Shown: piece by piece, positions 10,056-30,355 of the stretch
Layout: each line of letters starts with the position of its first letter
Position numbering within the stretch: the stretch's first letter is position 1
Source: a virus
Taxonomy: Duplodnaviria > Caudoviricetes
Length of the DNA stretch: 63,287 nucleotides
Virus record (IMG/VR): IMGVR_UViG_3300042868_006184
Span: 1 to 63,287 of that record
Strand: one strand, 5' to 3'
Program-made: the position numbers and the translations under genes
The notes under the pieces: generated by a model
What the model was told of the DNA's origin: nothing
Database searches by the model: none
Seen by the model: the letters and a program-made list of their open reading frames with translations, nothing else

Positions 10056-13000
10056 ATGGGCAATATTTCATCTAATTCAAAAGGAATGTATAAGGGTAAA
10101 AGTCATGCACAAGGTGGAATACCTGTTGTTGTTGATGGCAATACTAACGTAGAAATAGAAGGAAACGAGTATCATTTATGTAGAGATGCAATGTCAAGTG
10201 CCAAGATATATTCGTTCAAAAACAAATCAAACAAAGAAATTTTAGATAGCATATACTCTTCAGAAGGGTGTAAATTCGTGCAAGGAATCGCTAATAGTGG
10301 CGATTTTATTGTTTGTAAGCTAGTTGTGTTAGATGACACAAAAAGAACTATTACAGGTACAGTTAAAAGCATAATTGATACAATGCAAAGCGAGAAGAGT
10401 TGTAATGTTAGTGAGGGTGGTAATAAAATGGAGAAAGGTGGTGGTATTAAAAGCGAATGGCTAATAGATGGCAAAGATGCTACTTTTGAAGACTTTAAAG
10501 AAATATACCAACGTCAAATGTCAGAACAAATATTCAATTTTAACCCTAAAAAAGTAGAATATTTTGGTAGTAATGAACAGAATATTAGAGCAGTTGAAGA
10601 CTATAAAAGTAGAGCTACTATCTATAACAAAAAAGGAGAGTTAAAGAGATTCTATATGGAATCTATTATACGAAAGGCTTTTAATGACTTCTCACTTGTG
10701 AAATTTGGAAATGCTTTTAGAAAACATATTGACACATCTTTTCAACCAAAAGGTAAAGAACTAAACAATATGAAGTGGTCTGAATTAGCTGGGTACATTA
10801 TTGGGGATAATGGTTACTATATTTCCAAAGAAGATGACTTTAGGGGTTTTGCGAAACAGTTAGGAATACAAATTCCAGAAAAAGAAGTTGTCGAAAATGA
10901 ATCAGATAAAATGGAGAAAGGTGGTTCAATTGACGAACACAAAGAAACCTACCAAAAATGGAAGTCTTTAGTCAACATGAGCAAAAGTGAATTAGAAGAT
11001 TTTTATAATAGTCAAGAGGGCAAAGATGCTGGATTAAGCGACAAAGAATCAAACGATTTAGGAATTAGTAATGGTAGAGAATCTGCTCGTTGGATAATGA
11101 GAATGAAAGATACTCCTGTTTCCGATTGGACACCTAAAATGTGGGAATGGGCAAATAAGCAAATATCTTTTATCTCTCGAATGAGTGGCAATAAAGGTAG
11201 CTTGTATGACGATAAAGGCAATAAAACAAGGAAACATACATCTTTGCTAATTTGGGGGCATAATCCAAAGAAAATGGGTAATGGTGGTGAGATTAAAGAC
11301 CTTATCCTATCCAAAAAGATTGAGTTGAACTTTTATAGAACTACTCCAGACCATGCTTTAGAATACGGAATTGAAGCTAAAAATCCTTTGTACTTAAAGA
11401 ATTTTCATGTTACCAAAACTGAAAGACTAAAAGGTATAGGCAAAATGATGTTGAAATATCTTGACGATTATGCTATTGAAAATGGAAACGATGTTATATT
11501 TGGATATATTAACCAAAAAGCTACTTTCAGTAAAAACAAAGAAACCAATTTTAACGATACCCAATTAATCAAATATTGGTTACACGATAATGGTTATGCA
11601 ATCAATGATGACGATAATAACTTTCATAAGGTTGTAGGTGCTAAAATGAAACAAGGTGGTGAAGTTATTACATACAGAAACAAGTTTAACAAAAAGTATG
11701 GTTTTGACTTAAATGAAAGCCATAGCCTTGAAGAAATTGCAAAATTGACTATCTTAAAACTATCTGCATTACAAGATATTTACAATAAAGGTATTGGTGC
11801 ATATAAAACTAATCCAGAAAGTGTCAGACCTAATGTTAAATCAAAAGAACAATGGGCAATGGCAAGGGTTTATTCTGCTGTAATGGGAGGTAAAGCGTCA
11901 AAAGTAGATGCTAATGAATTGGAGCGTGGAAAAATGGCTGATGGGGGTGAAGTATCTGATATTTCTAAAGTATATAGTTCTTCATCAAGATTTAAGCCGA
12001 GTGAAACTATCGTATTTAATCCACCTCTTATTGGGACTAATGGTGCGAAATTAACCGCTTACACATGGGCATATGAGATGACCATGAAACCAAACTACGA
12101 AGGCGAATTGGTAGGGAAGCGTGTTTCTGATTGGACTCAAGCGGATAGTAGTGCAGAAACTGGTAGAGATATAGTTCACAAATACACAATTGAATTGCCT
12201 AATGGAAATATAAAAGTTGTTAGTAGCGAATCCGTTCCTATTTTATTAGGTTTTGAAGATAGAAGTCAAGCAAAGGTTTTTGGTAATTTAGCAACAGCAT
12301 CTAAAACACTTGCAAAGCAACAAATGAAACTAGCTATCATGGAGGCTCAAAAGAAAGAATATGATGATTTGAAAGAGAAATTCACTAAAGAACCAAAGCC
12401 AAATATAAGGATAGCCACAACTGAAGAATTGCCTTATATATACCGAAAAAAGATAGATAGAAATGAACTTATTCAATATACATTTTTTACTATGGGTGAT
12501 GTTACTCAATCTCAATACAACCAAGCAATATATAAGGACGGAAAAACAATATTTATTCCTTCTGAAAGACCATCACAATCTACAATAAATGATTTGACAT
12601 CAAGTTGGATAGACAAAAGGGTAAAAGAAGCAGGTGGCGAATACCCAAGAGAATTGTATGACCTTAAAAATAGAGTTGAAAGACAAAAGCGTAAAGTAGA
12701 ACAAATGCTTAATCCTAAAATGGAGGATGGTGGGGAAATTGATAATTTCAAAATGGTTTCATTTCCAGAAGATAAGAATTATAAATATTATGTAGTTGAT
12801 GAAGACGAGGATAATTATTTAACGGTTCAAGAAGATATGTATCATAAATGGAAAAACGCAAATAAAATAGAAAGAGCAGAATATTATTCGGAATGGATTC
12901 CAAAAGAAGATATGGTTGACACAATGGAAGATGGAGGTGAAATAGATAACATTTTTGAATTATCAATTTACAATGTAATTGCAGGTGGCAACAATGATAG

Positions 13001-16000
13001 CGACACTCTTTACTATGGAACTAATTTAAAAGATGCAGAAGATAAGTATGATTATTCAGATTTAGATGATTTATCAGAATCAGACCAATTTAATGGTGGA
13101 TTGATTGAATTACAGAAACAAACAAATACCTATAAATTCGTTTATGAATTAGACAAAGAATACAATGAAGAAATTTCAGACTACCCAATTGAAGAATATT
13201 ATGAAGATAGAAAATACTACAAATTAGTTGAGGAAGGTGAGTTTGAAACAATAAAGGAAAAACAAATTGTTGGTACAAATGAGGTAGAATCAGAAAATAA
13301 AAACAAAGCGATTGATTTACTCGATGAAGTAGTTTCTATTTTTAAGAAAAAATACCCAAGATATACTAATGCTGGTTATATTGTAAAAAATAGCCATTAC
13401 TTTTTAATACCTATTGATGATACCGATAAGACTATTGAGTTAAGAGTATCAGACCATTCTCCAAATTTTAGAAATATTGATGCCAATGCCAATGAAATTT
13501 TATTTACTGAACTTGTTAAAATAGGAGAAGAGCCTAAAAAAGTTGATAGGACAAATGAGGATAATTATGATGTTAAGGCATTAAACGAAAATTATGTTGA
13601 ATATCAACAAATAAAGCCTAAAAATAGAGTTGCATTAATAAATTGTGTCATTTATTATGGTAAAGATGAAACTTATAAAAAGTTTGATAAAAACACAGAA
13701 TATAATGTAATTACAGAATATTTTGACTTAGATAATTACGATTATGATGTTAGTGATATTGTTGAAAAAATAGATGAATTGATTGAAGATGAAATTTATC
13801 AGTTTGAAAATGGCAAAAATGAAGTTAATGTTTTTCAAGATGGTGGCAATATTCCAAATTCCAATATCGAATTACTTGCACCGAATGGCAATAAGTCTAA
13901 TCTAAATCACGAACAATGGCATATAGTAAGAACTCCTGCTTTTAAACAATGGTTTGGTGACTGGGAGAAACTTGCAATGGCGAAAATTAAAGATTCTGCT
14001 ATGGATGAAGTCACTTTGGCTAATATATCTAAGGACGTTTCGAAAATAGTTGATGAAAATGGTGAGCCGTTAGTTTGTAATCATTCTTCGAGAGAAAAAG
14101 ATATTGATATTTTTTATGGTGGAAGAATATTTCGGACTAAATCAAATGAAGTAAAACCAATATGGTTTACATATAAACAAGGGAATGTTTATGCAGAGGA
14201 TGAAGATATTTTTCAGTATCAATCATTTTTGAACATTAGGAATTTATTTGATTATTCAAATCAAAAAGATGTAAGTGAATTGAGTGATTACTTTTTTCAA
14301 AATAACGACAAAAAATTGCCCGATTATGATTTTGATATGGATTGGGAAGCACAAGAACAATTTAATTTACCTGCATATATATATGAAATGGGCTATGATG
14401 GGTATAAATTTACTGATGAATATTCCATAGTAATTTTCAATTCAAACCAAATCAAACTTGCAGATGGAACTAACACTACTTTTGATGGGAACAATGACGA
14501 TATAAGGTATAAGGTTGGTGGCAAATTAAAAAAGGGCGAGGTAGAAGATGAACATAAGTTAAATGACGTAATAGTGTACCACGAAAAAAATGGAAATTGG
14601 TTTATACCTAAAAATAATATTTATGCGTGGTTATATGATGTAGAAGATGCTCCTGCAAAATTAAAGAGTAAAGAGTTTGATTATATATTTTTCCCATCAA
14701 CTCCAAGTTTGTCTATGGCTTTTCAAAAAGGGTATGTTCCACCATTGTTGAGAATATGGACACCTAAATACCAAAAAGAAACTAAGGGCAGTAAGAACTT
14801 AATGGGAATAGTACAAGCGTGGTATGACGAAGATAAAAAAAAGCTTTATGTCGAAATGATGACCACAAATCCGAAGCATAGGCGAAAAGGTATAAATGGT
14901 CATATTATTAAAGAAATAAGAGAAATGCTTGGATTGACAAAAGACGATGTAATATTTGACAAACCTACCGATATGGGTAAATCATTTATGAAGGCTGGAA
15001 AGTTTGAAGATGGTGGCGAGGTTTCTTCAAGCGAATATCTTAATGTTTTGCAAAAGCTAGGTATTACGGAAGAAGAACGAGAAAATTGGAGAGAATTGCA
15101 TAAGGTAAATCAAAAGCAGATAAGAAACGACAAAGTAAAGGAATCAGCAGAGAAACTTAAAAATGGTACAATACAGCAAAGTGAATATTTAAAAGTAGTA
15201 GCAAAGGAGCAACCTATTAAGTTATTTACAGAAGTGCCTAAATTACCTACTCCCAAAGAAATAATTTGTGCAGTAAATTCAAATATGGTCGCAAAAGGAA
15301 TAGTTGGATATACTAAGCACATAGAAGATGGCACTAATGTAGCATCAAGACTTGATATACCTGCATACGAAAATTACGATACTTGGGTTGTTTCAATACA
15401 CGATGGAATAACAGAAAAAATTATTACCTATGGTCAAACTGCATATTTAAAAAATGTAGAATTTAAGACGTTTCCAAAAACGGCATTAAATATTGCAACT
15501 GGTTCTGCTAAATCTACAATTGGGAGAATGTATGGAACATGGGAAAATAAATCTCCAGAAGATGTTCGAAACATGGCAGTTAAATATATGAATGACCCTA
15601 ATTGGGTGCAAATAGGTATGAATCCTTTTAGACATAGTTGGTTTTACGATAAGAATGATAGTATGCCTTTAATTTCAGCTAAAGAGGTTATTCAAGTTGG
15701 AGCATTAGTACTTGCTAAGAATCCAGTTAAGACAACACCCTACAACGATATGTTTATTGCTGATAGGAGAAACCCAAGTATAAAATTTAAGCAAGGTGGT
15801 GAAATTAAAACGGCTTTAAAAGAAGTTGAAAGTGCAAGAAGTGTAAAATATTGGATGCAACCAGAGTTTCCTGCTGAAAGTAACCGATATGAACAAAAGG
15901 GCAAACCAGATTCATTTGTGAAAATTTATGATGAAAAATACAACGGTGATACTATACTTGCTTATAATAAAAGAGGTAATCTTGTAGGCTTATTCAGTAT

Positions 16001-16598
16001 ATCAAAAGGCGGTAAAGAACAAGGAGCATTTAAAATAGTTGTTCGTGAAGATTCTATGAATAAAGGATGGGGTAAAAAGTTACTTGACGAAGCAGAAAAG
16101 CAAGGTATTGATATTGTAGGCAATATAAAACATAACTCGTTTTCTTTTAGTGGTAGAAACTTGCTAAGAAGTTGGTTGGAAAAGAAAATGGAAAGCAAAA
16201 TGAAAGATGGAGGGGAGATAAAAAAAGAAAATAAGGGTGGAGATTGTTATGTGTCGGCAGGTAATATTGTAATTAAGGATTATAATAACATAGACTTTAT
16301 GGGTACTCCTTATTTAATTCATGCAGAGGTAACAGGTCAAGGTGCAATTTCTGGTATTAAATACGGACACGCTTGGATTGAAGATGATGTTTTAGTTTAC
16401 GATTATTCAAACGGAAGGAAATTAGAGATTCCGAAAGACTTTTATTATGCAATTGGAAATATCAAAACATCAAACCCTAAAAAATATCGAAAGTACACTT
16501 TTTTAGAAGCAAAACGAAAAATGGTCAAAACTGGAAATTATGGTTGCTGGGATTTAGACGTTCAGTTTGAAGATGGAGGGCAAATAATTAATAACTAA
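10056..16598 (+). CDS. Giant polyvalent protein A (DUF3140-like, 3 GNAT-like, QWAMARVYS domain, ART-PolyVal-like, C-terminal Cys-His peptidase-like), with domains separated by 13 [MFY]xxGG motifs
   Basis: VNMS..EL...SLLIWGHNP; ERLKGIG, RRKGIN and NKGWGKKL acetyl-CoA loops; FKQWFGD..SKIVDENGEPLV..NQIK; GDCY..GHAWIE. Confidence 0.75.
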   Translation: MGNISSNSKGMYKGKSHAQGGIPVVVDGNTNVEIEGNEYHLCRDAMSSAKIYSFKNKSNKEILDSIYSSEGCKFVQGIANSGDFIVCKLVVLDDTKRTITGTVKSIIDTMQSEKSCNVSEGGNKMEKGGGIKSEWLIDGKDATFEDFKEIYQRQMSEQIFNFNPKKVEYFGSNEQNIRAVEDYKSRATIYNKKGELKRFYMESIIRKAFNDFSLVKFGNAFRKHIDTSFQPKGKELNNMKWSELAGYIIGDNGYYISKEDDFRGFAKQLGIQIPEKEVVENESDKMEKGGSIDEHKETYQKWKSLVNMSKSELEDFYNSQEGKDAGLSDKESNDLGISNGRESARWIMRMKDTPVSDWTPKMWEWANKQISFISRMSGNKGSLYDDKGNKTRKHTSLLIWGHNPKKMGNGGEIKDLILSKKIELNFYRTTPDHALEYGIEAKNPLYLKNFHVTKTERLKGIGKMMLKYLDDYAIENGNDVIFGYINQKATFSKNKETNFNDTQLIKYWLHDNGYAINDDDNNFHKVVGAKMKQGGEVITYRNKFNKKYGFDLNESHSLEEIAKLTILKLSALQDIYNKGIGAYKTNPESVRPNVKSKEQWAMARVYSAVMGGKASKVDANELERGKMADGGEVSDISKVYSSSSRFKPSETIVFNPPLIGTNGAKLTAYTWAYEMTMKPNYEGELVGKRVSDWTQADSSAETGRDIVHKYTIELPNGNIKVVSSESVPILLGFEDRSQAKVFGNLATASKTLAKQQMKLAIMEAQKKEYDDLKEKFTKEPKPNIRIATTEELPYIYRKKIDRNELIQYTFFTMGDVTQSQYNQAIYKDGKTIFIPSERPSQSTINDLTSSWIDKRVKEAGGEYPRELYDLKNRVERQKRKVEQMLNPKMEDGGEIDNFKMVSFPEDKNYKYYVVDEDEDNYLTVQEDMYHKWKNANKIERAEYYSEWIPKEDMVDTMEDGGEIDNIFELSIYNVIAGGNNDSDTLYYGTNLKDAEDKYDYSDLDDLSESDQFNGGLIELQKQTNTYKFVYELDKEYNEEISDYPIEEYYEDRKYYKLVEEGEFETIKEKQIVGTNEVESENKNKAIDLLDEVVSIFKKKYPRYTNAGYIVKNSHYFLIPIDDTDKTIELRVSDHSPNFRNIDANANEILFTELVKIGEEPKKVDRTNEDNYDVKALNENYVEYQQIKPKNRVALINCVIYYGKDETYKKFDKNTEYNVITEYFDLDNYDYDVSDIVEKIDELIEDEIYQFENGKNEVNVFQDGGNIPNSNIELLAPNGNKSNLNHEQWHIVRTPAFKQWFGDWEKLAMAKIKDSAMDEVTLANISKDVSKIVDENGEPLVCNHSSREKDIDIFYGGRIFRTKSNEVKPIWFTYKQGNVYAEDEDIFQYQSFLNIRNLFDYSNQKDVSELSDYFFQNNDKKLPDYDFDMDWEAQEQFNLPAYIYEMGYDGYKFTDEYSIVIFNSNQIKLADGTNTTFDGNNDDIRYKVGGKLKKGEVEDEHKLNDVIVYHEKNGNWFIPKNNIYAWLYDVEDAPAKLKSKEFDYIFFPSTPSLSMAFQKGYVPPLLRIWTPKYQKETKGSKNLMGIVQAWYDEDKKKLYVEMMTTNPKHRRKGINGHIIKEIREMLGLTKDDVIFDKPTDMGKSFMKAGKFEDGGEVSSSEYLNVLQKLGITEEERENWRELHKVNQKQIRNDKVKESAEKLKNGTIQQSEYLKVVAKEQPIKLFTEVPKLPTPKEIICAVNSNMVAKGIVGYTKHIEDGTNVASRLDIPAYENYDTWVVSIHDGITEKIITYGQTAYLKNVEFKTFPKTALNIATGSAKSTIGRMYGTWENKSPEDVRNMAVKYMNDPNWVQIGMNPFRHSWFYDKNDSMPLISAKEVIQVGALVLAKNPVKTTPYNDMFIADRRNPSIKFKQGGEIKTALKEVESARSVKYWMQPEFPAESNRYEQKGKPDSFVKIYDEKYNGDTILAYNKRGNLVGLFSISKGGKEQGAFKIVVREDSMNKGWGKKLLDEAEKQGIDIVGNIKHNSFSFSGRNLLRSWLEKKMESKMKDGGEIKKENKGGDCYVSAGNIVIKDYNNIDFMGTPYLIHAEVTGQGAISGIKYGHAWIEDDVLVYDYSNGRKLEIPKDFYYAIGNIKTSNPKKYRKYTFLEAKRKMVKTGNYGCWDLDVQFEDGGQIINN

Positions 16599-16613
16599 AA
16601 ATATAAAACAAGA

Positions 16614-19600
16614 ATGACACCAAACGATGAATACCAAAAAGCTAAATATAATTTAGAAGAGGCTGAAAAGTTACAAGAAAGAATGAAGACAGTAAATGCA
16701 ATTATTCGTTCTAAAAAGAATGTAACAGAACGATTAATTAGCGAGGCTGGTTTGTCTGAATCAAATGCAATGCAAATACAAGAGAAAGATTTTGCAGGAA
16801 GAGTAGGGTTTTCAACATATAAGCTAACAAATAACAACGCCAATATATCTAGGTTAAGAGAAAGAGTTAATATGCTTAGTGATAAACTTGAAAGTGCAGA
16901 AAAGGGTAACGAAACTTATACTTTTAGCGAAATAGGTGGTGGTGGTACAATAGAAATCAATTACGATATTGATAGAGTACAGTTGTTGTTTCCTAATGGA
17001 AGAGTGGATAATGAAGTTTATAAGCTATTAAGAAAGAATGGATATGTCTATTCTCCTACAAATAAAGCGTTCCAAAGGAAGATAACACCACAGGCAATAA
17101 GTAATGCAATTTACTTGACAAAAGCTACCAGAGGTGAAGTTGCTGAACAAAGAGATGTTTCATTATCTAATTTAACAGATGCAGACCGCCAAAATATGCT
17201 AGAAAATAAGAAATTTAGTTATGTAACTGGCAGTTTATATAATGCACTACCTCCTTCTTTTAAGGAATATACTGGAGCAAAAACATTTGAATTGGTATAT
17301 TTTAGCACTAATAGGGAAAATGTAAAAGATGCAATAAAAAGATACTTTAAAGAGAATATGCCTATTGTCGATATAGAAAAAATGACAATTAATGTATATA
17401 CACAAACATATATTAGAGAATCAAAATTATTGTATAAACGAGGTGATTTTATGCCATCTAATACCGAACCTAATGTTTTATTAAGATTAAAAAACGAAAT
17501 TAATTCATATCAAAATATGAGTGATAGGGTTGACAAAGAAGAACCAAAAGCAGAAACGCCATTTTTTACTGAAATTGGTAGTGATGGTTATGATAGCAGA
17601 GTAGATAATAATGAAATGGATTATGACGCAGAAGAGGAGGTTTTAAAAGACTTACAAAAATATTCTTCTCCTAAAAAATATAACTCCGAAATTGAAGTAG
17701 GGCAAAGGTATTACGATAATCGTTATGCGGATTATTATACTATTGAAAAAATGACGGAAGTAATTAGTGGTGGCGATGTTAACGCAACATTGAAATATGA
17801 TAAAGGTGCAACAAGAACAGAAAGTGGGGATTTTATCTTGTATCATATAGACGCAAAGCAACATAGTCTATCTAAAGAAGAGCCAAAAGAAACCATTGAA
17901 ACAATAGAACCAAATAGTTCAGATGAATTTGACGAAATTATTATGGCAAATATTGACCCTAAAGATGACTGGATTGGCAATTTGGTGAAGGAACGTGACG
18001 TAAAACAACAAATTTACAAACAATTAAGTGGTGATGAGCAGGAAAAAGAAGCAGAAACAAATAGAATTTTCTATCTTTATGCTGAAAAGAATAAAAATAA
18101 TCGAGAATTACACGAAATGAACAATAAAAACTTTGAAGAGATTAAAAGATTAAAGAAAGAAATTGCCAATGGTGAAAGGCTTATGTCTAATATAAACTTT
18201 AGTGGTGATGTAACAAATGAAATAAATAGATGGAAAAAGCAATTAGCAGAATTAGAAGGAAAAGAAAATTCAAATAGTGGCAAAATTCCTGCAAAACTTA
18301 TTACCTTACAAATAAGGGACGATAGAACTACTCAACAAAAATATACCGATTATGATTACGATGGGGCGAATGATAAAATGCGTTGGATACTTGACAATAA
18401 AAAGTTTTCAGACCTTAATTACAATATCCAATTTGAGGATGGAGAAACTTTAAGTGGCGTAATTGATTGCGAACCTAGAGAGTTTTTTGATGGAGTTTCT
18501 AATCCACTAACTCGCCACTTGAATACATTTTGGGGCAATGTAGCTAAAGGTAAAGGTGCGTTCATTGGAGCAGAAGAAACGCAACAAGCAAAAGACCTTA
18601 TTGAAAAATATGATTTAGGTGAAGTTAAAGTAGGTGCATCACAAATAGAACCAAAAGCCAAAGAATTAGTAAAACTTCCTCAATCAATTATTAATCTAAT
18701 TGACTATTTGAACAAAGAAGATGATGCTAAGAAAAAAGCAGAAAGATGGAATGAACAAAGAGGGTTATTGTTGCCAAAACTTGGTCGAACTTTATGGCAA
18801 ATTGTAATGAATGTTCCTTATATTGAGGTACAAAGAAGTGGTGATGAATCAAGAGTACATTTTTCTGGAAATGACCTTTTAAGAGCAATAGACAAAGTAT
18901 ATAAAGAAAACGATGTTGAGTTTGACCAATATGATTATGGTACAACTTCCGAACAACCAAAAGCTAAAGAATCAAAACCATTTGGATTAACAACTATTGA
19001 ATATCTTGATAGTGGCAAAACTGTTACTTGGGGAACAAAAACAAGAAGAGGTAGAGAAACCGTAATAGGCAAAAGTAATTCAGATATTAATGAGGAAATA
19101 GAAAGCCTAAAAGAATATATTGTAATTGGAGAAATTGAACTAAAAAAAGCACAAGAACAATATGATAAAGTAAAAGGAATGGGTAGTCCAACAATGTATA
19201 AAAATGTTGCTGATGCTCTTTCTCATTTAAAAATGATTGAAAGAACGCTCTATGTAAATAAAAACATATTGCTTCCGTTTTTTGAAAAAAATATTGGAGA
19301 AGGAGAAGAAAAATCCGACTATCAAAAAGAACTAGATAGGCAAGTTAATGAAGGTGAAATAGAAGATGATAGTCAAGGAATAAGCCTATATCATTTAGCA
19401 AAGAATATTGAAGAAACTACAAATAACCAATTTAAAGGTATTCATCACAACTATAAAAATCAATATGTCTTAAACAAGGCTATTGAGGAATTATTAATGA
19501 CAAAAGATAATAATTATAGTTCAGAAGAGAAAGTATTTATTCGTAAATACTCTGGTTATGGTGGATTAGATAAGTATGGTAAAGGAGGCAAAGGTTCTTT

Positions 19601-20222
19601 CTTTGAATTTTATACGCCAACCGAAATCATTGAACGTATGTGGGGATTAGCTTACAAATATGGATATGATAATGGTTCTGTTTTAGAAACTTCAGTTGGA
19701 ACAGGTGAGTTTTTTAGATATGCACCGAAAGATGCAAGATTAGTAGGTTATGAAATAAGCGAATATTCGGGCAAAATTTGTAAAATACTTTATCCAACAG
19801 CAGAAATAAACATACAGCCTTTTGAGAAAACATTTATCAAAAACAATTATACTATAAAAGGTAGATTAGACGATTTGGAGAAGTTTAGCCTAGTAATTGG
19901 CAATCCTCCTTATGGTGATTTTTCAAAAGTAGAAAGCCGTTATATGTCTGGTATGGGTGAAAAGGATTATACACACGCAAGAAATTATGTCGAATATTTC
20001 ATAAGAAGAGGTATGGACTTATTGGAATCGGGAGGTTTGTTAGTTTTTATCGTTGGAGCAAGTTTACAAAATGGAGGCACAATGTTCTTAGATTCTGGTA
20101 TGTCACCAGTAAAAAAATGGCTTTCTGAAAATTGCACTTTAGAAACAGCATATAGATTACCCGATTCAGTATTTGAAAGAACAGGAGTTACGGCAGACAT
20201 CATTGTATTAAAGAAAAACTAA
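16614..20222 (+). CDS. Polyvalent protein with C-terminal DarB-type N6-adenine methyltransferase
   Basis: N-terminal LTNNNANISR...RVQLLF..AFQR domain; C-terminal YSGYGGL, EFYTP, LETSVGTGEF, IGNPPYG. Confidence 0.8.
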   Translation: MTPNDEYQKAKYNLEEAEKLQERMKTVNAIIRSKKNVTERLISEAGLSESNAMQIQEKDFAGRVGFSTYKLTNNNANISRLRERVNMLSDKLESAEKGNETYTFSEIGGGGTIEINYDIDRVQLLFPNGRVDNEVYKLLRKNGYVYSPTNKAFQRKITPQAISNAIYLTKATRGEVAEQRDVSLSNLTDADRQNMLENKKFSYVTGSLYNALPPSFKEYTGAKTFELVYFSTNRENVKDAIKRYFKENMPIVDIEKMTINVYTQTYIRESKLLYKRGDFMPSNTEPNVLLRLKNEINSYQNMSDRVDKEEPKAETPFFTEIGSDGYDSRVDNNEMDYDAEEEVLKDLQKYSSPKKYNSEIEVGQRYYDNRYADYYTIEKMTEVISGGDVNATLKYDKGATRTESGDFILYHIDAKQHSLSKEEPKETIETIEPNSSDEFDEIIMANIDPKDDWIGNLVKERDVKQQIYKQLSGDEQEKEAETNRIFYLYAEKNKNNRELHEMNNKNFEEIKRLKKEIANGERLMSNINFSGDVTNEINRWKKQLAELEGKENSNSGKIPAKLITLQIRDDRTTQQKYTDYDYDGANDKMRWILDNKKFSDLNYNIQFEDGETLSGVIDCEPREFFDGVSNPLTRHLNTFWGNVAKGKGAFIGAEETQQAKDLIEKYDLGEVKVGASQIEPKAKELVKLPQSIINLIDYLNKEDDAKKKAERWNEQRGLLLPKLGRTLWQIVMNVPYIEVQRSGDESRVHFSGNDLLRAIDKVYKENDVEFDQYDYGTTSEQPKAKESKPFGLTTIEYLDSGKTVTWGTKTRRGRETVIGKSNSDINEEIESLKEYIVIGEIELKKAQEQYDKVKGMGSPTMYKNVADALSHLKMIERTLYVNKNILLPFFEKNIGEGEEKSDYQKELDRQVNEGEIEDDSQGISLYHLAKNIEETTNNQFKGIHHNYKNQYVLNKAIEELLMTKDNNYSSEEKVFIRKYSGYGGLDKYGKGGKGSFFEFYTPTEIIERMWGLAYKYGYDNGSVLETSVGTGEFFRYAPKDARLVGYEISEYSGKICKILYPTAEINIQPFEKTFIKNNYTIKGRLDDLEKFSLVIGNPPYGDFSKVESRYMSGMGEKDYTHARNYVEYFIRRGMDLLESGGLLVFIVGASLQNGGTMFLDSGMSPVKKWLSENCTLETAYRLPDSVFERTGVTADIIVLKKN

Positions 20223-20234
20223 ATAAAAAACATC

Positions 20235-20468: not shown

Positions 20469-20469
20469 A

Positions 20470-23400: not shown

Positions 23401-26400
23401 CAAACATACAAACAATGGATTGCTGAATTTAAGAAATTTGCAAACCATGTTAGAATAAATGAATTTTATAATTTATCAACAGGTTATTTTGAAGATTGGC
23501 AAGACGTGAATGGCGTTACTAAAATGGTTGCCGAAGGTTCAGTTTCAATTATGACTTATGAGGGGATGCTAAAAATAGGATTCAATGACGATACGGTAAC
23601 TAGAATAAAGCCACAAATATCTGATATTTTAAAACAACAGACAAAATCTGATGATTCTAATAAAAAACAAGATGCAAACGCAGAAAAATTAGAAAGCAAG
23701 ATTGAAGAAATGATTGGCAAATTACTTGCTAAAACGACTACAAATATTGAAGATTTAGGGTTTGACTTTTTATTGTTTGACGAAGCACACGCTTGTAAAA
23801 AAGTATTTACTAATGTGGCAGGTGAAAAAGAAGAAAATTTAGGCAACTCTGGTAAAGAAACAAAAGCTATTGTAAAATATAAAATTCAAAGTGGAGAACC
23901 ATCTAGTAGAGGTGTTAAAGCATTTATGCTTTGCCAATATATACAGACAACATTTAAAGGCAATACGCTACTTTTAACAGCAACACCGTTTACAAATAGT
24001 CCCTTAGAGGTTTATTCAATGTTGGCTATGATAGGATATAATAAACTAAAAACGCTTGGATTAGACAATTTAAACGTGTTTTTCGATACTTATGTTGCTA
24101 CATCATACGAAATGATTATTAACTCTAAATTAAAGCCAGAACGTAGACAGGTTATTCTTGGTTTTAATAATTTAGTATCTCTTCAGACATTGATTCGTAG
24201 ATTTATGAACTATAAAACTGGTGAAGAGGTAAAAGTACCACGTCCAAATAAGATAGTGTTACCATTAAAAACTAAATTAGTCGATGGCTTATTGATTAAT
24301 TTGCCAGAAGACGAACAAGTTAATACCATTTTGCCATTATCTCCTCTACAATCACAATTTATGAATGATGTTATGGAATATGCAAACGGGAATATTAGCG
24401 AAGAAGAAATGTGTAGTGGAGGTGGGTTATTTGAAGAAACGGATGGAGATACAGCTAGAGCAGAAGGTATTGAGATTGACGAAGATTCAATGACTAATGA
24501 AGAAAGGGTTGGTGTAAGATTATTAAAAGCAATGGCTCATGGTAGAAATCTTGCATTAAGTCCTTACATATTTAAGTGTTCAGGATTAGGTAGACCGACA
24601 GCACAACAATACATAGAAACATCAAATAAGTTAAGTTATGTGATGGAATGTATAAAAACAATAAAAGAATATCATAAAAAAGAAGGTACTCCTATGTCTG
24701 GAGTAGTTATTTATATGGATAGAGGAGTTGAATATTTTAATTTGATTAGAGAATATTTAATAACAAATGTTGGTTTTGAAAAACATGAAGTTGGTGTAAT
24801 ATCTGCAAAATTAATAACTCCTGTTCCCTCTGGAATACCAAAAGATGAACAAAAAGAGTATGTAAAAAATCTATTTTTAGGTGAGAGATTTAACGAATCA
24901 ACATTAGAAATGGAAAAACTTTCGGATGATGAAAGATGCAAAATTTTAATTGGCTCTTCTACTATTAAAGAAGGTATTAACCTGCAAAAACATTCATCAA
25001 CATTGTTTAATTGTTGGATAGATTGGAATCCAACAGACATACAGCAGTTAGAGGGAAGGATATATCGTCAAGGAAATAAATTTAATACAGTAAGAATAGT
25101 CAATCCATTAATGATTAATAGCATAGATATTTTTATGTTCCAAAAATTAGAGGAGAAAACAAATCGTATAAACGATATATGGTCAAATGAAGGTAAAACA
25201 AACGTACTTCATACAGAAGAGTTTAATCCAAAAGACTTAAAATATTCGCTAATTAAGGATGCTTATATTCTTGCCGAAATGGAATTGTTGGAAATAGCAG
25301 AAACTATAAATGAAGATATTGTTGATGCAGAAAACAAGATTAAAAGGAATGAAAGGATTAAATCTTATGACTATACATTAAAACTTAGAGAAAAAGATTT
25401 AGAAAAAAGAGTTGAGATGTATAGACCATTGGCAGAAGGTCAACCCAAAAGAAGCATTGAAACATTGATAAGATTATATCAAGATGTTTTAAGAAATCAA
25501 ATGGATGGTCAAGGCAAAAAAATGGAAACAGAATGGAGGCAAGATAAAAAGAAAAGGGAGGAAGGATATTATTCTAATTTTGAACCAGAACATAAGCAAT
25601 TTTGGTTTGACGATTTTAATTATGCTAATCGTGGAATGGTTCACGAAACAAGGAACTACTTAATACCAAACGGAATTACTATTGAAACACTTGACGATTA
25701 TACCAAAAAAATAGAGAATGACATTATAAAGTTAAAAGAACAAAAACAATTGCTTTCTTCTGAAGATGCCATCAAAATTAAGGCGAATCAAATTAATGAT
25801 GAAAGAGTAGCAAATAACATAGTTGAAAGAACATTACCAGAAGTTGTAAATGATTTCACAAAATTAAATTATTTGCTTAGTGATACTAAGATTACAGCAA
25901 CAGACAAATCAATAGAAGTGCCTACAATACAATGCCCTCCTTTAGATGGCGAAGGTAAGGTAAGAATAGACGAAGAAGGGTTGGTTTTGCTTGGTAGATG
26001 TATAGATAATGATGCAGATACAAAAAGACTACATACTAACGAGGCAGGTGAATACACAGAAGAGAGAATGAAATTACATGAATACATCATTCATGACATG
26101 ACTTCAAAAACAATATGTATTCCACAAGAAAAAGGTCACCCAATAGCTGTTTTAATGGGAGGTGCGCCAGGAAGTGGTAAGTCTACATACATTAAGAAAA
26201 ATGCAAAATATTTAGAAAGCGACAAGATATGGAAGGTCGATGCAGATGCAGTAAGAGAATACCTACCAGAATATGAAGGTTGGAATAGTCCATCAACACA
26301 TCAAGAATCGAGGGATATTGTTAACGAACTTATTAGCACTTTTGACAAACCATGTAAGCATGACTTGTTGTATGATGGCACTATGAGTAATTCATCAAAA

Positions 26401-26880
26401 TACATATCTTTAATTAAGGAATTAAAGAGGATTGGATATTTGGTATTTATTATCTATATGGATGTGCCAAAAGAGGTGAGCATTCAAAGAGCAATGAATA
26501 GATATAGAAATTATAGTGGTGGCAAGATTAAATATGGTCGTTATGTGCCTATGTCAGTTATTGACGATTTCTACAAAACAGGTAAAGAAGGGTTGGATGA
26601 GATAAAAAAATCAGTAGATGGATATGTTGTTGTTGATTCATTAACTGAAAAGATTATCGAAAAAGGAGGTATTCCATTACCTAAAGATAGATATTACGAA
26701 AATATGGTTAATGATAGTCCTAAAACTGAATACAAAGAAGAATCAATATCAGATGATAAACGAAGGGTACTTGAAGCTATTGAAACTATTGAGGGATTGT
26801 TGGGTATTGTTGATGGAAAAGATTTGATTAAACTCCAAAAAAGAAAAAGCAGTTTAGAAGAATTAGTTGACATATTATAA
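20470..26880 (+). CDS. Polyvalent protein: ddrB/ParB-like domain, SNF2 helicase and zeta-toxin-like P-loop kinase
   Basis: GTPII..DGIVVSGNNR; YDVGVGKT, DEAH, LTATP, EGINLQ, QLEGRIYRQGN; GGAPGSGKS..DAD..YDGT. Confidence 0.85.
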   Translation: MTEQINQKYPIGYRSSFLKTPIAYGKNITLEMPNNEKYKGQFVVVELDNILASHNERSYSTTEGYPLDANGENVNDRNYQGDKASQNAISNIAQNLSPSRLITTSRTPSGTPIISVDGIVVSGNNRVMSIKLAVVDFPNGYKEYCDFLKEEIDAFGFENMTSYNGEYTVTNRDNVTIKFNHPVLVRINYDFPAYNTLELSKYNKDNKKSERPIDKALKLGKILESSKTCTTIISDIVGRYETFSEFYANRNDQNEIKNTLVDCNILTKQELPSYYTELGFTEQGKELIENLLAGLVLSKDALITSNEGGARKFRQTIITSLPILTANKSLPENSLNDALNEALIMEGAMSSNNIPFIDYVGQIDMFGVVISEEGKFLNRLLASGRNNFKRSIEAYNQSVLDNQGESLFGEKPSKEEIFTVHIKNKIDKEDRLLIENSVKKLKQNNVMDKEPSIITSKESLKTNPFTNGNFFASNPDNILAETKESVDRWKKPIITYKGTIANVQRIDVPLTQIVFTPETTNPIVSIVEESVEEATDTNTQVIENLGNAKKGSDKEVQKKTVRKAKAKKEKNAVAVEELIDEYSVREVYDMLNPEVSIEELRVFMWWKNKSGSPILSKEWLSLTEMTENELYNDSDLVYSWIEQGLLYYFDGELLPAYLYLAENIYDKKNRLQVVEVKSEDGEETTSRSGADADYIIRKYGQKVYDNQLKALEDVFKVKYNNRLLIKGEKTKDGEELIINPVSKFAKEFMIKSLVEGNPFMWKRITAGGNKRYGKPDFLEIKYDKNDKHLFKELSLTDAFCYWLRTDDTIQYKRGMNYADIIRIYIQSGNQPSTSAVKVEGVYSPIQMAIKKKETAEWERLKSRAKEEGDRLFLVFLDKQLTLNDKVAIETKWNRVFNGYVKINYNKVPVAFPCNKYDMGKPMEIKPEKREAVAFTFSEGSGLLAYDVGVGKTPSAIFTICQFLETKKCLRPLLIVPNQTYKQWIAEFKKFANHVRINEFYNLSTGYFEDWQDVNGVTKMVAEGSVSIMTYEGMLKIGFNDDTVTRIKPQISDILKQQTKSDDSNKKQDANAEKLESKIEEMIGKLLAKTTTNIEDLGFDFLLFDEAHACKKVFTNVAGEKEENLGNSGKETKAIVKYKIQSGEPSSRGVKAFMLCQYIQTTFKGNTLLLTATPFTNSPLEVYSMLAMIGYNKLKTLGLDNLNVFFDTYVATSYEMIINSKLKPERRQVILGFNNLVSLQTLIRRFMNYKTGEEVKVPRPNKIVLPLKTKLVDGLLINLPEDEQVNTILPLSPLQSQFMNDVMEYANGNISEEEMCSGGGLFEETDGDTARAEGIEIDEDSMTNEERVGVRLLKAMAHGRNLALSPYIFKCSGLGRPTAQQYIETSNKLSYVMECIKTIKEYHKKEGTPMSGVVIYMDRGVEYFNLIREYLITNVGFEKHEVGVISAKLITPVPSGIPKDEQKEYVKNLFLGERFNESTLEMEKLSDDERCKILIGSSTIKEGINLQKHSSTLFNCWIDWNPTDIQQLEGRIYRQGNKFNTVRIVNPLMINSIDIFMFQKLEEKTNRINDIWSNEGKTNVLHTEEFNPKDLKYSLIKDAYILAEMELLEIAETINEDIVDAENKIKRNERIKSYDYTLKLREKDLEKRVEMYRPLAEGQPKRSIETLIRLYQDVLRNQMDGQGKKMETEWRQDKKKREEGYYSNFEPEHKQFWFDDFNYANRGMVHETRNYLIPNGITIETLDDYTKKIENDIIKLKEQKQLLSSEDAIKIKANQINDERVANNIVERTLPEVVNDFTKLNYLLSDTKITATDKSIEVPTIQCPPLDGEGKVRIDEEGLVLLGRCIDNDADTKRLHTNEAGEYTEERMKLHEYIIHDMTSKTICIPQEKGHPIAVLMGGAPGSGKSTYIKKNAKYLESDKIWKVDADAVREYLPEYEGWNSPSTHQESRDIVNELISTFDKPCKHDLLYDGTMSNSSKYISLIKELKRIGYLVFIIYMDVPKEVSIQRAMNRYRNYSGGKIKYGRYVPMSVIDDFYKTGKEGLDEIKKSVDGYVVVDSLTEKIIEKGGIPLPKDRYYENMVNDSPKTEYKEESISDDKRRVLEAIETIEGLLGIVDGKDLIKLQKRKSSLEELVDIL

Positions 26881-26955
26881 TATTTGTATAAAAACTATTT
26901 AAAAAACAAACAATTCGCAAATCTTTACTAAATTTGCGACAAAACAAAAAAATCA

Positions 26956-29900
26956 ATGAAAAATAACTACAATAAAAAAGCAAATGTAACAAATGACATG
27001 AGGGGTGAAGATTCCGATGACTATGGAACTTTTGAGATTTACAAAAATGGAGGTAATATTGAGGTTAAAGTTGTAAATAGCGACAAACAATATAATGAGA
27101 AACAATACGATTGGATTTTAGGTGATAAGGATAAGGATAGTGTTGCTAACGCAGACGATGTAAAACCTCTTGACAAAAATATAAAGGAGCGTATAGACGA
27201 ACCAACTATTACAACTGGAATAAAGAATTTAATATCATTAAAGAAATCTTTGGATAGCACAATGTATTCATTCATTGAAGACCTTAAAAATGTTGCTCCA
27301 AACAATAGCAAGATTTATGCTCGGACAAAAACACCTTATAGTGTACTTGATAAGTTAATCAAAAAGCGACTTTCAACTATTACAGATTTGATTGGAACAA
27401 CTATTGTTACAAATGATAAAAAGGAATTAGATGCTATAAAGAATTATGTTGAATCTGGTAAAATTGGTAAGGTTGTCGAGATGGAAGATATGTACGAAAA
27501 ACCAAAACAAGGTTATAGAGCGTATCATTTTTTGATTGAAAGAAATGGAATGACGATTGAATTGCAGGTAAAAACAAAACGTCAAAAAGCGTTAAACGAA
27601 TTAAGTCACGAACCATACAAATTAGGTAAATTAAATTCAACAGTAAACCTTAAAATGACAGAATTGGCAAATCGTGCTGATGAAGGTGATAAGAATGCTA
27701 TAAAAGAATATAATGACTTTATGAATCAACCAAATGTAGAGAAACTATTTTATGCAGATGGACAAATGATGGCTAAAGGAGGCACATTGACCAAATCACA
27801 ATTAAAGCACTTTAAAGAATGGATGGAAGATGGTAATGTTAGTAAAAACAACGATGGTACATATTCTACACAAGATGCTCAATTTAGTAACAAATTGAAA
27901 GACTTTAACGAACTTAAAAAGTATTTTAAAAGAGAATTTGCTATTGATGAATATGCTGATGGTGGTGGAGTAGATGATATTCAAAAGAAAATAGAGTACG
28001 CAAAAACGCTAAAAGTGGGTGACGAATTTAGCTATAAAGATTCTGGTAGATTACGACCAACAAAAGATATAGTTTACTATATATTTAATGATGACCCAAT
28101 TAATTTTATTGGCATCAAAGAAAGAGATGAAGACGATAGAAGCTATGTGGAAAAAGTCCAAACAATCAAAATATTTGTTCCAGAGAAAGATAGCGATACC
28201 AAAATGGCAAATGGTGGGAGCGTAAGTAAAAGAGGAGGTAATTTTAATGTAGGTGATAAAGTAATGGTTGACGATAGTGGTTACATCAAGTCTTTTCAAG
28301 GATTTGACTTATCGAAACCAGCTACTATTTTGACTAAAAATAAAGTAAAAACAAGTCAAGGTATTAAATATTCTTATAGTATTGAGTTGGCAGATGGCAG
28401 AAAACCATTTAATAATGCGATGGAAAATAAATTAACTTTAGCAGATACATATTATGCTAAAGGTGGCGAAGTAAATAATCCAAGTAAAAAAGAAATGCTT
28501 AATTATTTGAATATGTATTTTGATAATTATTCAGAATTAAGAACAATAGCTGTTGAAGAAGACAATATATTGACAAGAAAAATGTTAAATTCATTAGATG
28601 ACGAATTATTGGAATTGGCTTATGAAGATGCAAAATATGAAATAAAAGCAGATACACAATATGCTGATGGTGGTAAAATGGCAAAAGGTGGAGGAGTTAA
28701 AAAAAGAATAGTAGTTGTATGGGATGAGGGCTATGGCAAAGTTATTAACGATTTGTACAATCAATGGAATAACGTTAAAACTCAAGTGCAATATGACAAA
28801 TGGGTTAGTAAAGTTAAAGAAACCAAATTTGGTACTTATGGAAATATACCATTTGAAGAGGTTTTGGAAAAGTTTGATTTCGATAACGCACCTATCAATA
28901 GTTTCCATCTAAAAACCTTCAAAGTCGAACTTAAAAATGCTTTGAATAAATACGAAGATGGCGGTTTAATGGATTCACAACAAGGCATTGACTTGTTTGA
29001 AGACTACGAAAATATCCCAGCAAATGTTCAATCTATTTTAGATAACCATGAAGATGCTTTTATGGATGGTGATTACAAAGAATTGCAGAAAGCATTAACT
29101 CAATTAAAGAAAATAGGGTACACTTTTGAATATGACTTAGACGGTCAAGCATACGACTTACGTCCAATAGGAACTAAAGGTAAAAGTGAAATGGAAGAAT
29201 ATGAAGAGGGAACAGAAGCATTCAAACAAGGCGGTAATGTAGATAGTTCTGTAACAAAACTAAATAAATTGGGTATTAGAACTTCAGATGAATTTGGAGA
29301 TGAATTTAGGGATTTCCTTGACGATTTAGAAGAAAAAAATGATGGAGAATATATTGGTTATAGATTAGATTTACCAAATAATGAATTAACGCTCATACAA
29401 GAAAAAGCAACTAAAACAGTTTCAATATTAGACTATTCAGAATTTCCTAAAGATAAAACATGGAGAATAGAAAAACATTCAATTATACATTACAAAGAAG
29501 GCGGTTCAATGACAAACAAAAATCAAACAACAATGACACAAGAACACATAGACAAATTTGTACGAGGTGCAAATAGTACAGATGAAACAGCAAGAGAAAT
29601 TAGCACTAGAAAGCTAAAAGAAGCAGGACTTGACAAAAATGGTAAGCCTCTTGAAAGCAAACTATCAAAACCTAAAACTTCAAAAAAAGTAAAAGTAACT
29701 CCAATGGAAAAATTGGATAAAGAAACAAAAACCTCTATGGAGGATTATTTTGATAAATCAAAAGAAGATGCAGAAGATGATGAAGGCAAGACTTTAATAA
29801 GTTACGATGAATTTAACAAAATGTGGAATACTATGCCACATGATACATTTCTTTTTTGGGTAGGTTGGGACACATATAGCTATAACGAGTTTGAAGTAAT

Positions 29901-30339
29901 GGGAGATGGTGATTTCAAAAAAGGAATTGAGAAATTTTATAAAGACTATAAAGTGCTTGTAGATTTTCAAATTGATGGAAGTGATAAAACATATAGAATT
30001 GATATTAGGAAAAGTTCTAAACCTACTACATCAGAAAAAAAAGCAAAGGCAACTAACACTTCTAAAGCACCAATGACAGACAGCAAAGAAACAGAAGACG
30101 AATATTGTAAAAGAATTATAGCTGAAGCAAGAGCAAGAAAATTAAAAGCTAAAAAAATTGCTAAAAAATCTGCAAACAAACCAGCAGTTACAAAAGCGAC
30201 TGAAAGAGTTGAAAGAACGCATGAATCTATTGAAAAGCAAATTGAAACAGGTAAATTAAAAAAGGAACAAATTGAAAAAATTATCGCAGAAACAGAAGAT
30301 TTATTAAGAATGTTAAAAAAAGCATTAAAATCTTTGTAA
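26956..30339 (+). CDS. Polyvalent protein B with RelA/SpoT-type nucleotidyltransferase domain and 10 [MFY]xxGG motifs
   Basis: ARTKTPYSVLDK, TDLIG, GYRAYH, IELQVKT; Lys-rich C-terminus. Confidence 0.75.
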   Translation: MKNNYNKKANVTNDMRGEDSDDYGTFEIYKNGGNIEVKVVNSDKQYNEKQYDWILGDKDKDSVANADDVKPLDKNIKERIDEPTITTGIKNLISLKKSLDSTMYSFIEDLKNVAPNNSKIYARTKTPYSVLDKLIKKRLSTITDLIGTTIVTNDKKELDAIKNYVESGKIGKVVEMEDMYEKPKQGYRAYHFLIERNGMTIELQVKTKRQKALNELSHEPYKLGKLNSTVNLKMTELANRADEGDKNAIKEYNDFMNQPNVEKLFYADGQMMAKGGTLTKSQLKHFKEWMEDGNVSKNNDGTYSTQDAQFSNKLKDFNELKKYFKREFAIDEYADGGGVDDIQKKIEYAKTLKVGDEFSYKDSGRLRPTKDIVYYIFNDDPINFIGIKERDEDDRSYVEKVQTIKIFVPEKDSDTKMANGGSVSKRGGNFNVGDKVMVDDSGYIKSFQGFDLSKPATILTKNKVKTSQGIKYSYSIELADGRKPFNNAMENKLTLADTYYAKGGEVNNPSKKEMLNYLNMYFDNYSELRTIAVEEDNILTRKMLNSLDDELLELAYEDAKYEIKADTQYADGGKMAKGGGVKKRIVVVWDEGYGKVINDLYNQWNNVKTQVQYDKWVSKVKETKFGTYGNIPFEEVLEKFDFDNAPINSFHLKTFKVELKNALNKYEDGGLMDSQQGIDLFEDYENIPANVQSILDNHEDAFMDGDYKELQKALTQLKKIGYTFEYDLDGQAYDLRPIGTKGKSEMEEYEEGTEAFKQGGNVDSSVTKLNKLGIRTSDEFGDEFRDFLDDLEEKNDGEYIGYRLDLPNNELTLIQEKATKTVSILDYSEFPKDKTWRIEKHSIIHYKEGGSMTNKNQTTMTQEHIDKFVRGANSTDETAREISTRKLKEAGLDKNGKPLESKLSKPKTSKKVKVTPMEKLDKETKTSMEDYFDKSKEDAEDDEGKTLISYDEFNKMWNTMPHDTFLFWVGWDTYSYNEFEVMGDGDFKKGIEKFYKDYKVLVDFQIDGSDKTYRIDIRKSSKPTTSEKKAKATNTSKAPMTDSKETEDEYCKRIIAEARARKLKAKKIAKKSANKPAVTKATERVERTHESIEKQIETGKLKKEQIEKIIAETEDLLRMLKKALKSL

Positions 30340-30355
30340 ATTTGCACAATCACAT

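Follow-up and report, generated by a model that had tools for sequence, protein, structure and literature searches.

Polyvalent proteins are thought to be a main route by which phages and plasmids deliver counter-defence enzymes, and how a virus handles chains of ten or twenty unrelated modules is a question on which the short junction peptide described here bears. The peptide occurs in the IMG/VR virus record IMGVR_UViG_3300042868_006184, which we analyzed over its full length of 63,287 bases (hereafter the window; 31% G+C, with inverted terminal repeats of 130 nt) and in which the + strand carries the genes up to approximately 58 kb. Four giant open reading frames (ORFs), A to D, are adjacent in the window. 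Two of them, ORF A (10056..16598, + strand, 2180 aa, 13 modules; in the database, the gene is called from 10 codons further downstream) and ORF D (26956..30339, + strand, 1127 aa), encode polyvalent proteins punctuated by copies of the motif [MFY]xxGGx[IVLM]. The comparisons below indicate that this peptide, refined to [YMF]-A-K-G-G-x-[VITLM], is a short signal that is selected at the protein level and bounds each exchangeable module.

Motif copies and the domains between them

Counting by regular expression gave 13 strict matches to [MFY]xxGGx[IVLM] in ORF A and 10 in ORF D, exactly the numbers in the sequence-only reading that had drawn attention to the locus. Chance levels were estimated from 2000 residue shuffles per protein: shuffled ORF A contained a mean of 0.27 strict matches (maximum 3) and shuffled ORF D a mean of 0.10 (maximum 2). 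The copies of ORF A (A1 to A13, all on the + strand) are MEKGGGI (residue 125, 10428..10448), MEKGGSI (286, 10911..10931), MGNGGEI (407, 11274..11294), MKQGGEV (531, 11646..11666), MADGGEV (627, 11934..11954), MEDGGEI twice (889, 12720..12740; 957, 12924..12944), FQDGGNI (1260, 13833..13853), YKVGGKL (1485, 14508..14528), FEDGGEV (1650, 15003..15023), FKQGGEI (1911, 15786..15806), MKDGGEI (2049, 16200..16220), and FEDGGQI (2171, 16566..16586). In the last of these, the Gly-Gly is followed by five residues and then the stop codon (FEDGGQIINN). Those of ORF D (D1 to D10, also on the + strand) are YKNGGNI (residue 29, 27040..27060), which follows a 28-aa leader and is kept in 17 of 17 aligned homologues of the RelA module, MAKGGTL (272, 27769..27789), YADGGGV (333, 27952..27972), MANGGSV (417, 28204..28224), YAKGGEV (500, 28453..28473), the tandem pair D6 and D7 within YADGGKMAKGGGV (569 and 575, 28660..28698), YEDGGLM (666, 28951..28971), FKQGGNV (756, 29221..29241), and YKEGGSM (846, 29491..29511). 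Both peculiarities on which the sequence-only reading had remarked, the tandem YADGGKMAKGG in ORF D and the copy five residues from the C-terminus of ORF A, are therefore in place. The N-terminal module of ORF A (residues 1-125, 10056-10430) also holds a variant copy with His in the first position (KSHAQGGIPVVV).

The two giant neighbours have no more than the incidental matches previously claimed for them. ORF B (16614..20222, + strand), a 1202-aa protein with a C-terminal N6 DNA methylase, contains no strict match and one loose match (YGKGG), and ORF C (20470..26880, + strand), a DarB-like protein of 2136 aa with ddrB-ParB, SNF2 helicase, and Zeta-toxin kinase domains, contains one strict match (MCSGG). 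No other ORF of at least 60 aa in the six frames of the window has more than two loose matches. Because ORFs B and C are equally large and multidomain and do without the motif, it is not a general linker of this virus.

The copies sit at domain borders, as the sequence-only reading had proposed. In ORF A, Pfam recognized DUF3140 (residues 302-397), DUF5824 (532-620), ART-PolyVal (approximately 1333-1476), and GNAT (1934-2018), and in ORF D RelA_SpoT (123-219); each of these domains lies between two adjacent motif copies. ORF A contains three GNAT-like modules in total, and Pfam also gave a weak match to an L5 gp82-like family. In ORF D, seven modules, each 61-91 aa long, come after the RelA_SpoT module, and the protein ends in a helical tail rich in lysine. 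Single modules of ORF A match stand-alone or otherwise-fused genes of cultured phages, and the aligned ranges of ORF A end near motifs (e.g., 1645-1921, 1237-1485, and 2062-2165). Neither the first 125 residues of ORF A, which also lack a Pfam match, nor the ORF D protein matched any of 50,697 cultured phage records.

Exchange of modules and selectivity of the motif in homologues

The homologue searches found 210 proteins for ORF D (E ≤0.001) and 408 for ORF A, and the best 120 of each set, 119 of them non-self, were analyzed. At least four copies of [MFY]xxGG were present in 118 of the 119 D homologues, and at least five copies in 108 of the 119 A homologues. The motif density in the A homologues was 0.51 per 100 aa vs 0.063 after shuffling (40 of the 119 were shuffled). 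Seven A homologues had two copies or fewer, including four unpunctuated proteins of 3100-3400 aa in which one module is common to ORF A. Some A homologues lie on long contigs of 102-287 kb, which hold P0434, P0446, P0447, P0480, P0483, and P0497. Together, the enrichment over shuffled sequences and the conservation in homologues bear out the claim of a real signal at module borders.

Among the matches listed, the homologues of ORF D other than the protein itself cover only 6-50% of it. The ends of BLAST alignments concentrate at the motif: for 159 alignments to ORF D, 56% of the ends fell within 10 aa of a copy vs 17% of random points, and for 12 alignments to ORF A the values were 50% vs 12%. 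We then cut 121 proteins after every [MFYL]xxGG and kept modules of at least 35 aa, which yielded 1094 modules in 490 families, 328 of them singletons. Comparing the modules with each other by BLAST gave 13,675 significant pairs; in 84% of these the alignment spans at least 70% of each partner, and in one family of 44 members the left neighbours belong to 33 families and the right neighbours to 32. These alignment ends and whole-module pairs with changing neighbours show that homologues swap modules at the motifs, as had been supposed. The median copy-to-copy spacing was 67 aa, so many modules are very small proteins. Moreover, two homologues (P0006 and P0050) begin with MALTKSQLK where ORF D has MMAKGG-TLTKSQLK, which indicates a natural module start just past the Gly-Gly. 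At least 35 aa long are 13 modules in ORF A and 9 in ORF D, so the "about 20" effectors of the sequence-only reading is roughly the right number; their separate release would depend on the processing discussed below.

The consensus over 1247 instances in the D homologues is K-[YMF]-A-K-G-G-x-[VITLM], with Ala at the second motif position in 61% of the instances, Lys at the third in 40%, and V, I, T, L, or M two residues past the Gly-Gly in 90%. Conversely, of the 1952 GG dipeptides in these proteins, 1256 have Y, M, or F three residues ahead (513 Y, 432 M, and 311 F), and other hydrophobic residues are rare at this place (91 L, 43 V, and 14 I). Of 661 occurrences of [MFY]A[KDNESQ]G, 634 continue with a second Gly. 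The preference for Y, M, and F over L, I, and V, the Ala, and the near-absolute second Gly argue for a reader protein rather than a passive hinge. The junction is short: around 811 isolated copies, hydrophobicity dips only at positions -4 to -1, +5, and +7 to +9. An internal translation start at the Met of the motif was rejected, as 65% of the copies begin with Tyr or Phe. In some strings a conserved tail follows the last motif, ending ...GGEIGENNSGWGLKFLKW (P0009, P0018, P0019, and P0020) or ...GG.VGAMTASERLKSVMKKRKK (P0022 and P0026) directly before the stop codon; these tails could themselves be signals.

Both A and D belong to the polyvalent proteins as defined by Iyer et al. 2017 (PMC5512222), a class of polypeptides encoded by phages, viruses, or conjugative elements that combine two to 15 unrelated conflict-type domains each and are expected to enter the host along with the DNA. 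As in that class, unrelated conflict-type domains are joined in one viral chain (several in A; RelA_SpoT plus eight further modules in D), and families that define the class recur here, namely ddrB-ParB in ORF C, ART-PolyVal in ORF A, and LPD11 in homologues, alongside RelA_SpoT, GNAT, Zeta_toxin, SNF2, and N6_Mtase. Both the class and its proposed processing are already known from this source, in which the domains are suggested to be released by a zincin-like peptidase predicted as a built-in MPTase domain, which is common in the class but not obligatory. The present proteins differ from that description in that Pfam scans of 39 homologues found no built-in MPTase, the candidate being a separate M48-like gene, and in that many of their modules are only 55-95 aa long. 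The main text of PMC5512222 contains no conserved junction peptide (the words "linker" and "glycine" each occur 0 times). A literature search for the motif peptides gave nothing relevant, and one for proteolysis, virion, or linker motif in connection with polyvalent proteins gave this paper as the only relevant source.

The strings of two other loci, L003 (8915-13762) and L007 (6375-9668), differ in their inner modules and are conserved at both ends, with a lysine-rich N-terminal GRRVS.K...NQYG...GRVYYE.R.NR.DR and a C-terminal AKEIRK.GE.W.DAVKR. These ends may serve delivery. In L003, an unstructured segment of 50 aa (TLPTPFGQAGLVGETG...YNPAYPTPHG) is repeated, with the motif on both sides. 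In several relatives, among them L007 (68-3147) and L010 (11564-14487), an AAA+ ATPase of the CobS/MoxR kind and a partner of 518-555 aa are encoded one to two genes upstream of the string; no homologue of this pair was recognized in the window.

Proteolytic processing, docking, and other readings of the motif

The reading that we favour, tentatively and at somewhat under an even chance, is that the motif is a proteolytic processing site cut by a virus-encoded enzyme. A and D would be strings of unrelated anti-host or host-takeover modules made as one polypeptide; the site would be read over approximately seven residues and cut after Gly-Gly by the conserved M48-like zinc metalloprotease of the lineage (47461..48243), so that each string would yield a set of small, separate effectors. 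Trimming of the N-terminal arm of a probable jelly-roll virion protein may be another task of this enzyme. We infer the cut itself and its place, the enzyme that would make it, and the travel of the proteins in the virion. Processing fits best because a seven-residue signal lies between unrelated modules, a protease gene is found in the late region throughout the lineage, and P0006 and P0050 start just past the Gly-Gly.

The candidate protease (47461..48243, + strand) is a 260-aa protein predicted to consist of an N-terminal beta-sandwich and an M48-like zinc-peptidase domain. The HExxH residues (H182, E183, and H186) and E200 are invariant in 44 aligned sequences, with the Glu ligand 18 residues past the first His and helices at 173-189 and 200-213. 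In the structural model (pLDDT 91, pTM 0.90), the beta-sandwich is followed by a sheet-plus-helices domain. The best structural match of residues 116-254 was Escherichia coli BepA, a member of M48 (Z 8.6, rmsd 4.5, 119 aligned), followed by the M48 entries 3c37 (Z 6.9), Ste24p (6.2), and ZMPSTE24 (6.1); these values are middling, and that of BepA barely exceeds what unrelated models reach, which counts against the assignment. The Foldseek list was mostly for the N-terminal beta-sandwich, and the catalytic domain was seen only by the wide aligner. The protein thus resembles M48 zinc metallopeptidases such as BepA, HtpX, and Ste24 in its HExxH with downstream Glu and, at these middling scores, in its four best structural matches, and differs from them in its extra N-terminal beta-sandwich and the lack of a sequence-model match; unlike Ste24 and HtpX, it has no membrane segments of their kind. 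No Pfam family matched it at E up to 0.1, Peptidase_M48 (PF01435) was silent on the window, and a profile of the 44 sequences found nothing among Protein Data Bank (PDB) sequences. When the protease was modelled in complex with 40 aa of ORF D that include the tandem motif, the score was 0.00 (no controls), which is evidence in neither direction.

The family has 2163 members at E ≤0.001 in a metagenome set of 5.8 billion proteins, and the gene sits in the late region among small membrane proteins. It was present in five of five records found via the RelA module and in four of five found via another small module, the exception being a record rated 50% complete. Overall, 10 of 11 related records have it, including G007, and all of them have punctuated strings.

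Other proteases were considered. Maturation proteases of adenoviruses and asfarviruses cut at Gly-Gly in viruses with jelly-roll capsids, and adenovirus cuts small basic DNA-condensing core precursors at several Gly-Gly sites; the sequence-only reading had drawn on this parallel. The motif shares with these systems a hydrophobic residue followed by Gly-Gly. The adenain consensus, however, reportedly has its hydrophobic residue at P4, whereas the motif has Y, M, or F one place further from the Gly-Gly, at P5, and Ala at P4 in most copies, and the candidate enzyme here is a metalloprotease. Neither Peptidase_C5 (PF00770) nor Peptidase_C48 (PF02902) matched the window at E up to 10, a search that a divergent member could escape, and a protease of the adenoviral or asfarviral type is not supported. 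For the C39 peptidases of double-glycine leader systems, the only match (PF03412, at 37286-37504) reached 14.7 bits (cut-off 22) and has three stops inside. The last module of ORF A (residues 2054-2170, 16215..16565, + strand) shows a Cys...His...Asp signature (GDCY ... GHAWIEDD) and is possibly a cysteine peptidase of the transglutaminase-like kind. One cluster among its ESM Atlas neighbours is auto-named "McjB C-terminal domain-containing", after a lasso-peptide protease, which is a lead only; Pfam and PDB sequence searches gave no match, and Mycobacterium phage Barnyard gp61 is a stand-alone homologue. As this module is missing in five of five related records, it was rejected as the general protease of the motif and is probably just another cassette.

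The virion protein whose arm may be trimmed is a beta-rich protein of 246 aa (40813..41553, + strand), with 1255 clusters at 50% identity in a library of 1.8 billion proteins. Its model (pLDDT 85) has a disordered arm (residues 21-52), which ends in YSNAGG, before a beta-barrel. The top Foldseek rows were nearly all picornavirus and tymovirus coat proteins with weak E values (1e-3 to 1e-2), VIA-align placed a PR772 chain first (weak, Z 6.2), followed by other viral jelly rolls, among them those of phiCjT23, FLiP, and PBCV-1, and a profile search found nothing among PDB sequences. From the model, the protein is probably a jelly-roll virion protein, capsid or penton. Within the 26 residues that precede the barrel, A-[DSNGTKE]-G occurs in 60 of 105 family members (shuffled mean 19.5, maximum 31) and [FYM]-A-x-G in 28 of 105 (shuffled mean 5.7). 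At the level of sequence, the likeness of the arm to the junction motif is real, though partial.

The motif extends beyond this lineage. We scanned IMG/VR with a DNA pattern that is independent of any module (MAKGG, then AKGG 55-65 codons on), which gave at least 120 stretches; 80 loci, with a G+C content of 0.33 to 0.62, were analyzed. An ORF with at least four copies was present in 63 of the 80 loci, and 53 of these 63 ORFs were of 250 aa or shorter, with a median Lys content of 24% and 5.6 copies per 100 aa. Such small proteins hold 7-11 tandem units, e.g., KKKG-MAKGG-KV. The first five motif positions in these repeats are imposed by the search pattern and the two after the Gly-Gly are independent of it; at the second of these two, M makes up 29%, V 24%, and A 23%. 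The lysine-rich repeat proteins of loci L041, L065, L069, L070, L078, L087, L113, and others of L036-L115 are approximately 100-170 aa long, and some hold conserved inserts such as DPKTGK.IP.FA.DGKGK.

The genes of these repeat proteins belong to the structural modules of tailed phages resembling HTVC023P, where they stand between capsid and adaptor genes, and in 22 of the 80 loci there is a capsid homologue, with 69-73% identity to the capsid proteins of Pelagibacter phages HTVC023P and HTVC027P and phage DSL-LC04. Weaker versions of the repeats occur in two cultured relatives, in a 75-aa protein of DSL-LC04 with three copies and in a 308-aa protein of Planktothrix phage Pag-Yong1 that ends ...YAKGGAVKRERYASGG...; a search of the tandem-repeat protein against cultured phages gave no match, for which the low-complexity filter is the probable cause. 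Small contigs found with the pattern were considered as microviruses and rejected: Phage_F matched 0 of 20, where the control search was also silent, and CheckV rated them 7-12% complete, i.e., fragments. In 185,579 bacterial and archaeal species genomes the same pattern gave 79 stretches, only 2 of which lie in an ORF with at least three copies. Motif-rich proteins are therefore essentially viral.

Several of these observations weigh against processing by the M48-like enzyme. The small lysine-rich proteins, which are almost wholly tandem KKKG-[MY]AKGG-x-[VMA], occur in phages without the protease. Its family was found in one of 14 larger motif-scan records, and in one of the four rated at least 90% complete, so the protein cannot be the general reader of the motif; the sole positive record, G007, also has a punctuated string. 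The co-occurrence of protease and strings lies within one lineage and is confounded by shared descent. Tandem copies are common, with spacings below 10 aa in 130 of 1137 cases, and among 124 proteins a copy lies within 10 residues of the C-terminus in five and starts within the first 10 residues in six; a cut at these extreme ends would free nothing useful. Pfam recognized no peptidase within 39 scanned homologues (13 families matched) or in A and D, the motif in the jelly-roll arm is degenerate, mostly A-x-G with the full [MFY]xxGG in only 12 of 105 members, and no cleavage at the motif was found in print.

The terminal copies (including the last one of ORF A), the tandem copies, the proteins built of tandem repeats in tailed-phage structural modules, and the weaker versions in DSL-LC04 and Pag-Yong1 would suit an uncleaved, multivalent docking or loading tag, the main rival reading, which we regard as possible though doubtful. 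In that case, the string would be packaged and delivered intact through binding to a site inside the virion (shell, membrane, or packaged genome) or to a loading chaperone, more copies giving stronger binding. The arguments of the sequence-only reading for such a tag hold up and extend to the homologues, the tandem-repeat proteins of other phages adding to them, and the selectivity for Y, M, and F also suits a binding pocket. The T4 internal-protein targeting sequence and encapsulin cargo-loading peptides are short peptides that take cargo into a shell; the motif resembles them as a short Gly-containing peptide and differs in that they occur once per cargo at one terminus, while it has up to 20 or more internal copies per protein. 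One pocket common to jelly-roll and HK97-type shells is unlikely, however, and the flanks in the window are often acidic (MEDGGEI and FEDGGEV), which lysine-based DNA binding does not explain. The likeness of the repeats may also be in part convergent low complexity, as the search pattern imposed their first five positions. Cutting and tagging would in any case not need to exclude each other: in T4, the peptide that directs proteins to the capsid is also where they are cut, and adenovirus cuts its small basic core precursors at Gly-Gly.

It is quite unlikely that the motif has no reader and acts as a compact hinge, a Gly-Gly turn with hydrophobic caps that insulates folds and moves with the cassettes. 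Such a hinge would account for the short junction, where composition is normal again within 4-9 residues, for modules moving as units together with the motif, and for the conserved strand-like stretch that opens with the residue past GG-x (GGxIEVKVV in the RelA module, invariant in 17 of 17). A cap should, however, accept the Leu, Ile, and Val that are rare here, the Ala and the second Gly are hard to explain by flexibility, and the giant multidomain neighbours B and C do without the motif. We give still less credence to a host factor that reads the motif after entry or synthesis in the cell, either a widespread protease (e.g., an M48 housekeeping enzyme) or a conserved machine. The occurrence of the motif in viruses of widely differing G+C content and capsid type favours a universal reader, and no common viral protease was found among the motif-scan records; against this, motif-rich proteins are nearly absent from the cellular genomes, no host protein with the same signal was seen, and no host protease is known to have this specificity, although no search aimed at one was made. 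A recombination joint in DNA, also suggested in the sequence-only reading, can practically be dismissed: although cassettes swap at the motif and a few copy pairs share 15-20 nt, the 23 window copies use all four Gly codons (GGT 27, GGC 8, GGA 6, and GGG 5), a synonymous variation that makes such a joint unlikely, their 21-nt cores are on average 59% identical, the longest exact run common to two copies has a median of 6 nt, and the motif persists as protein sequence in genomes whose G+C content spans 31% to 39% and more.

The virus lineage and the meaning of the motif

Searching with a conserved stretch of the RelA module gave 11 IMG/VR loci, and five of the records concerned (G001-G005, of 48-84 kb, two of them rated 100% complete) were analyzed in full. 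In each record, between one and three large ORFs are punctuated by the motif, the maximum being 20 copies in 1600 aa; other large ORFs lack it, and the rest of the genome has only single stray matches. The members of the lineage (the window, G001-G005, G007, G036, G037, G039, and G040) have genomes of 48-85 kb that are bounded by inverted terminal repeats and encode a probable virion protein of the jelly-roll type and a putative FtsK/HerA-like ATPase. A BLAST comparison of the window with the 84-kb record G004 found only a handful of shared proteins. These are the 260-aa protease candidate, the jelly-roll protein, a small membrane-anchored protein of 139 aa (46606-47022), the ATPase (35512-36372; TrwB_AAD_bind 20.3 bits and DUF87 (HerA) 19.6 bits, both just below the cut-off), and, directly upstream of the ATPase, an acidic, proline-rich protein of 361 aa (34385-35470). 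The last was rejected as a capsid protein given this composition and the AT-hook-like RGRPRKK at the end of its relatives; its role may be that of a scaffold, terminal protein, or genome-bound protein.

PHROG and Pfam scans covered 39 of the 44 ORFs of at least 150 aa outside the giants (17 by both libraries) and the ORF at 46606-47022, and there was no confident portal, terminase, or HK97-type capsid match in these ORFs; weak PHROG matches were a terminase large subunit (E 3e-4, in the ATPase ORF) and a head scaffolding protein (E 7e-3, 44575-45273). The lineage looks non-tailed, and the window virus seems to belong to an abundant, large uncultured lineage. If it is truly non-tailed, its genomes exceed those of the known bacterial jelly-roll viruses several-fold in size. 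Besides the jelly-roll protein, the window encodes RecT and two endolysins, and the latter show that a bacterium is the host.

Further features of these genomes stand apart from the motif. CheckV rated the window 19% complete despite its terminal repeats, and the DNA at 30000-50000 matched none of the 50,697 phage records. A 78-nt internal copy (2353-2430, 85% complementary) of part of the terminal repeat (63161-63238) is found at a distance of 2.35 kb from the left end. The gene at 38662-39273 encodes a complete Fe/Mn superoxide dismutase (Sod_Fe_N E 9e-26, Sod_Fe_C E 8e-33) and adjoins an SbcD-like exonuclease gene (37397-38620). G004 contains an open frame of 5345 aa (G004:C1:51940-67974, loci L014-L015) that is almost wholly collagen-like Gly-x-y (GSS/GTS/GAN) and probably encodes a giant fibre; its composition also opens long frames in another + frame and on the opposite strand.

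The junction peptide provides a rule for the computational cutting of polyvalent proteins into functional units, and it marks a large uncultured lineage whose hallmark proteins have 2163 and 1255 database clusters. That tailed phages have small proteins composed entirely of it suggests a more general, undescribed viral signal. A bolder extension, which we think rather improbable, is that the motif is a portable "virion cargo code" across jelly-roll and HK97-type lineages, which loads proteins and is cut where the protease matches. If true, cassette strings would give rise to mini-effectors and tandem-repeat proteins to small cationic genome-condensing peptides, and the motif would be the punctuation with which thousands of uncharacterised anti-defence modules could be read from metagenomes.

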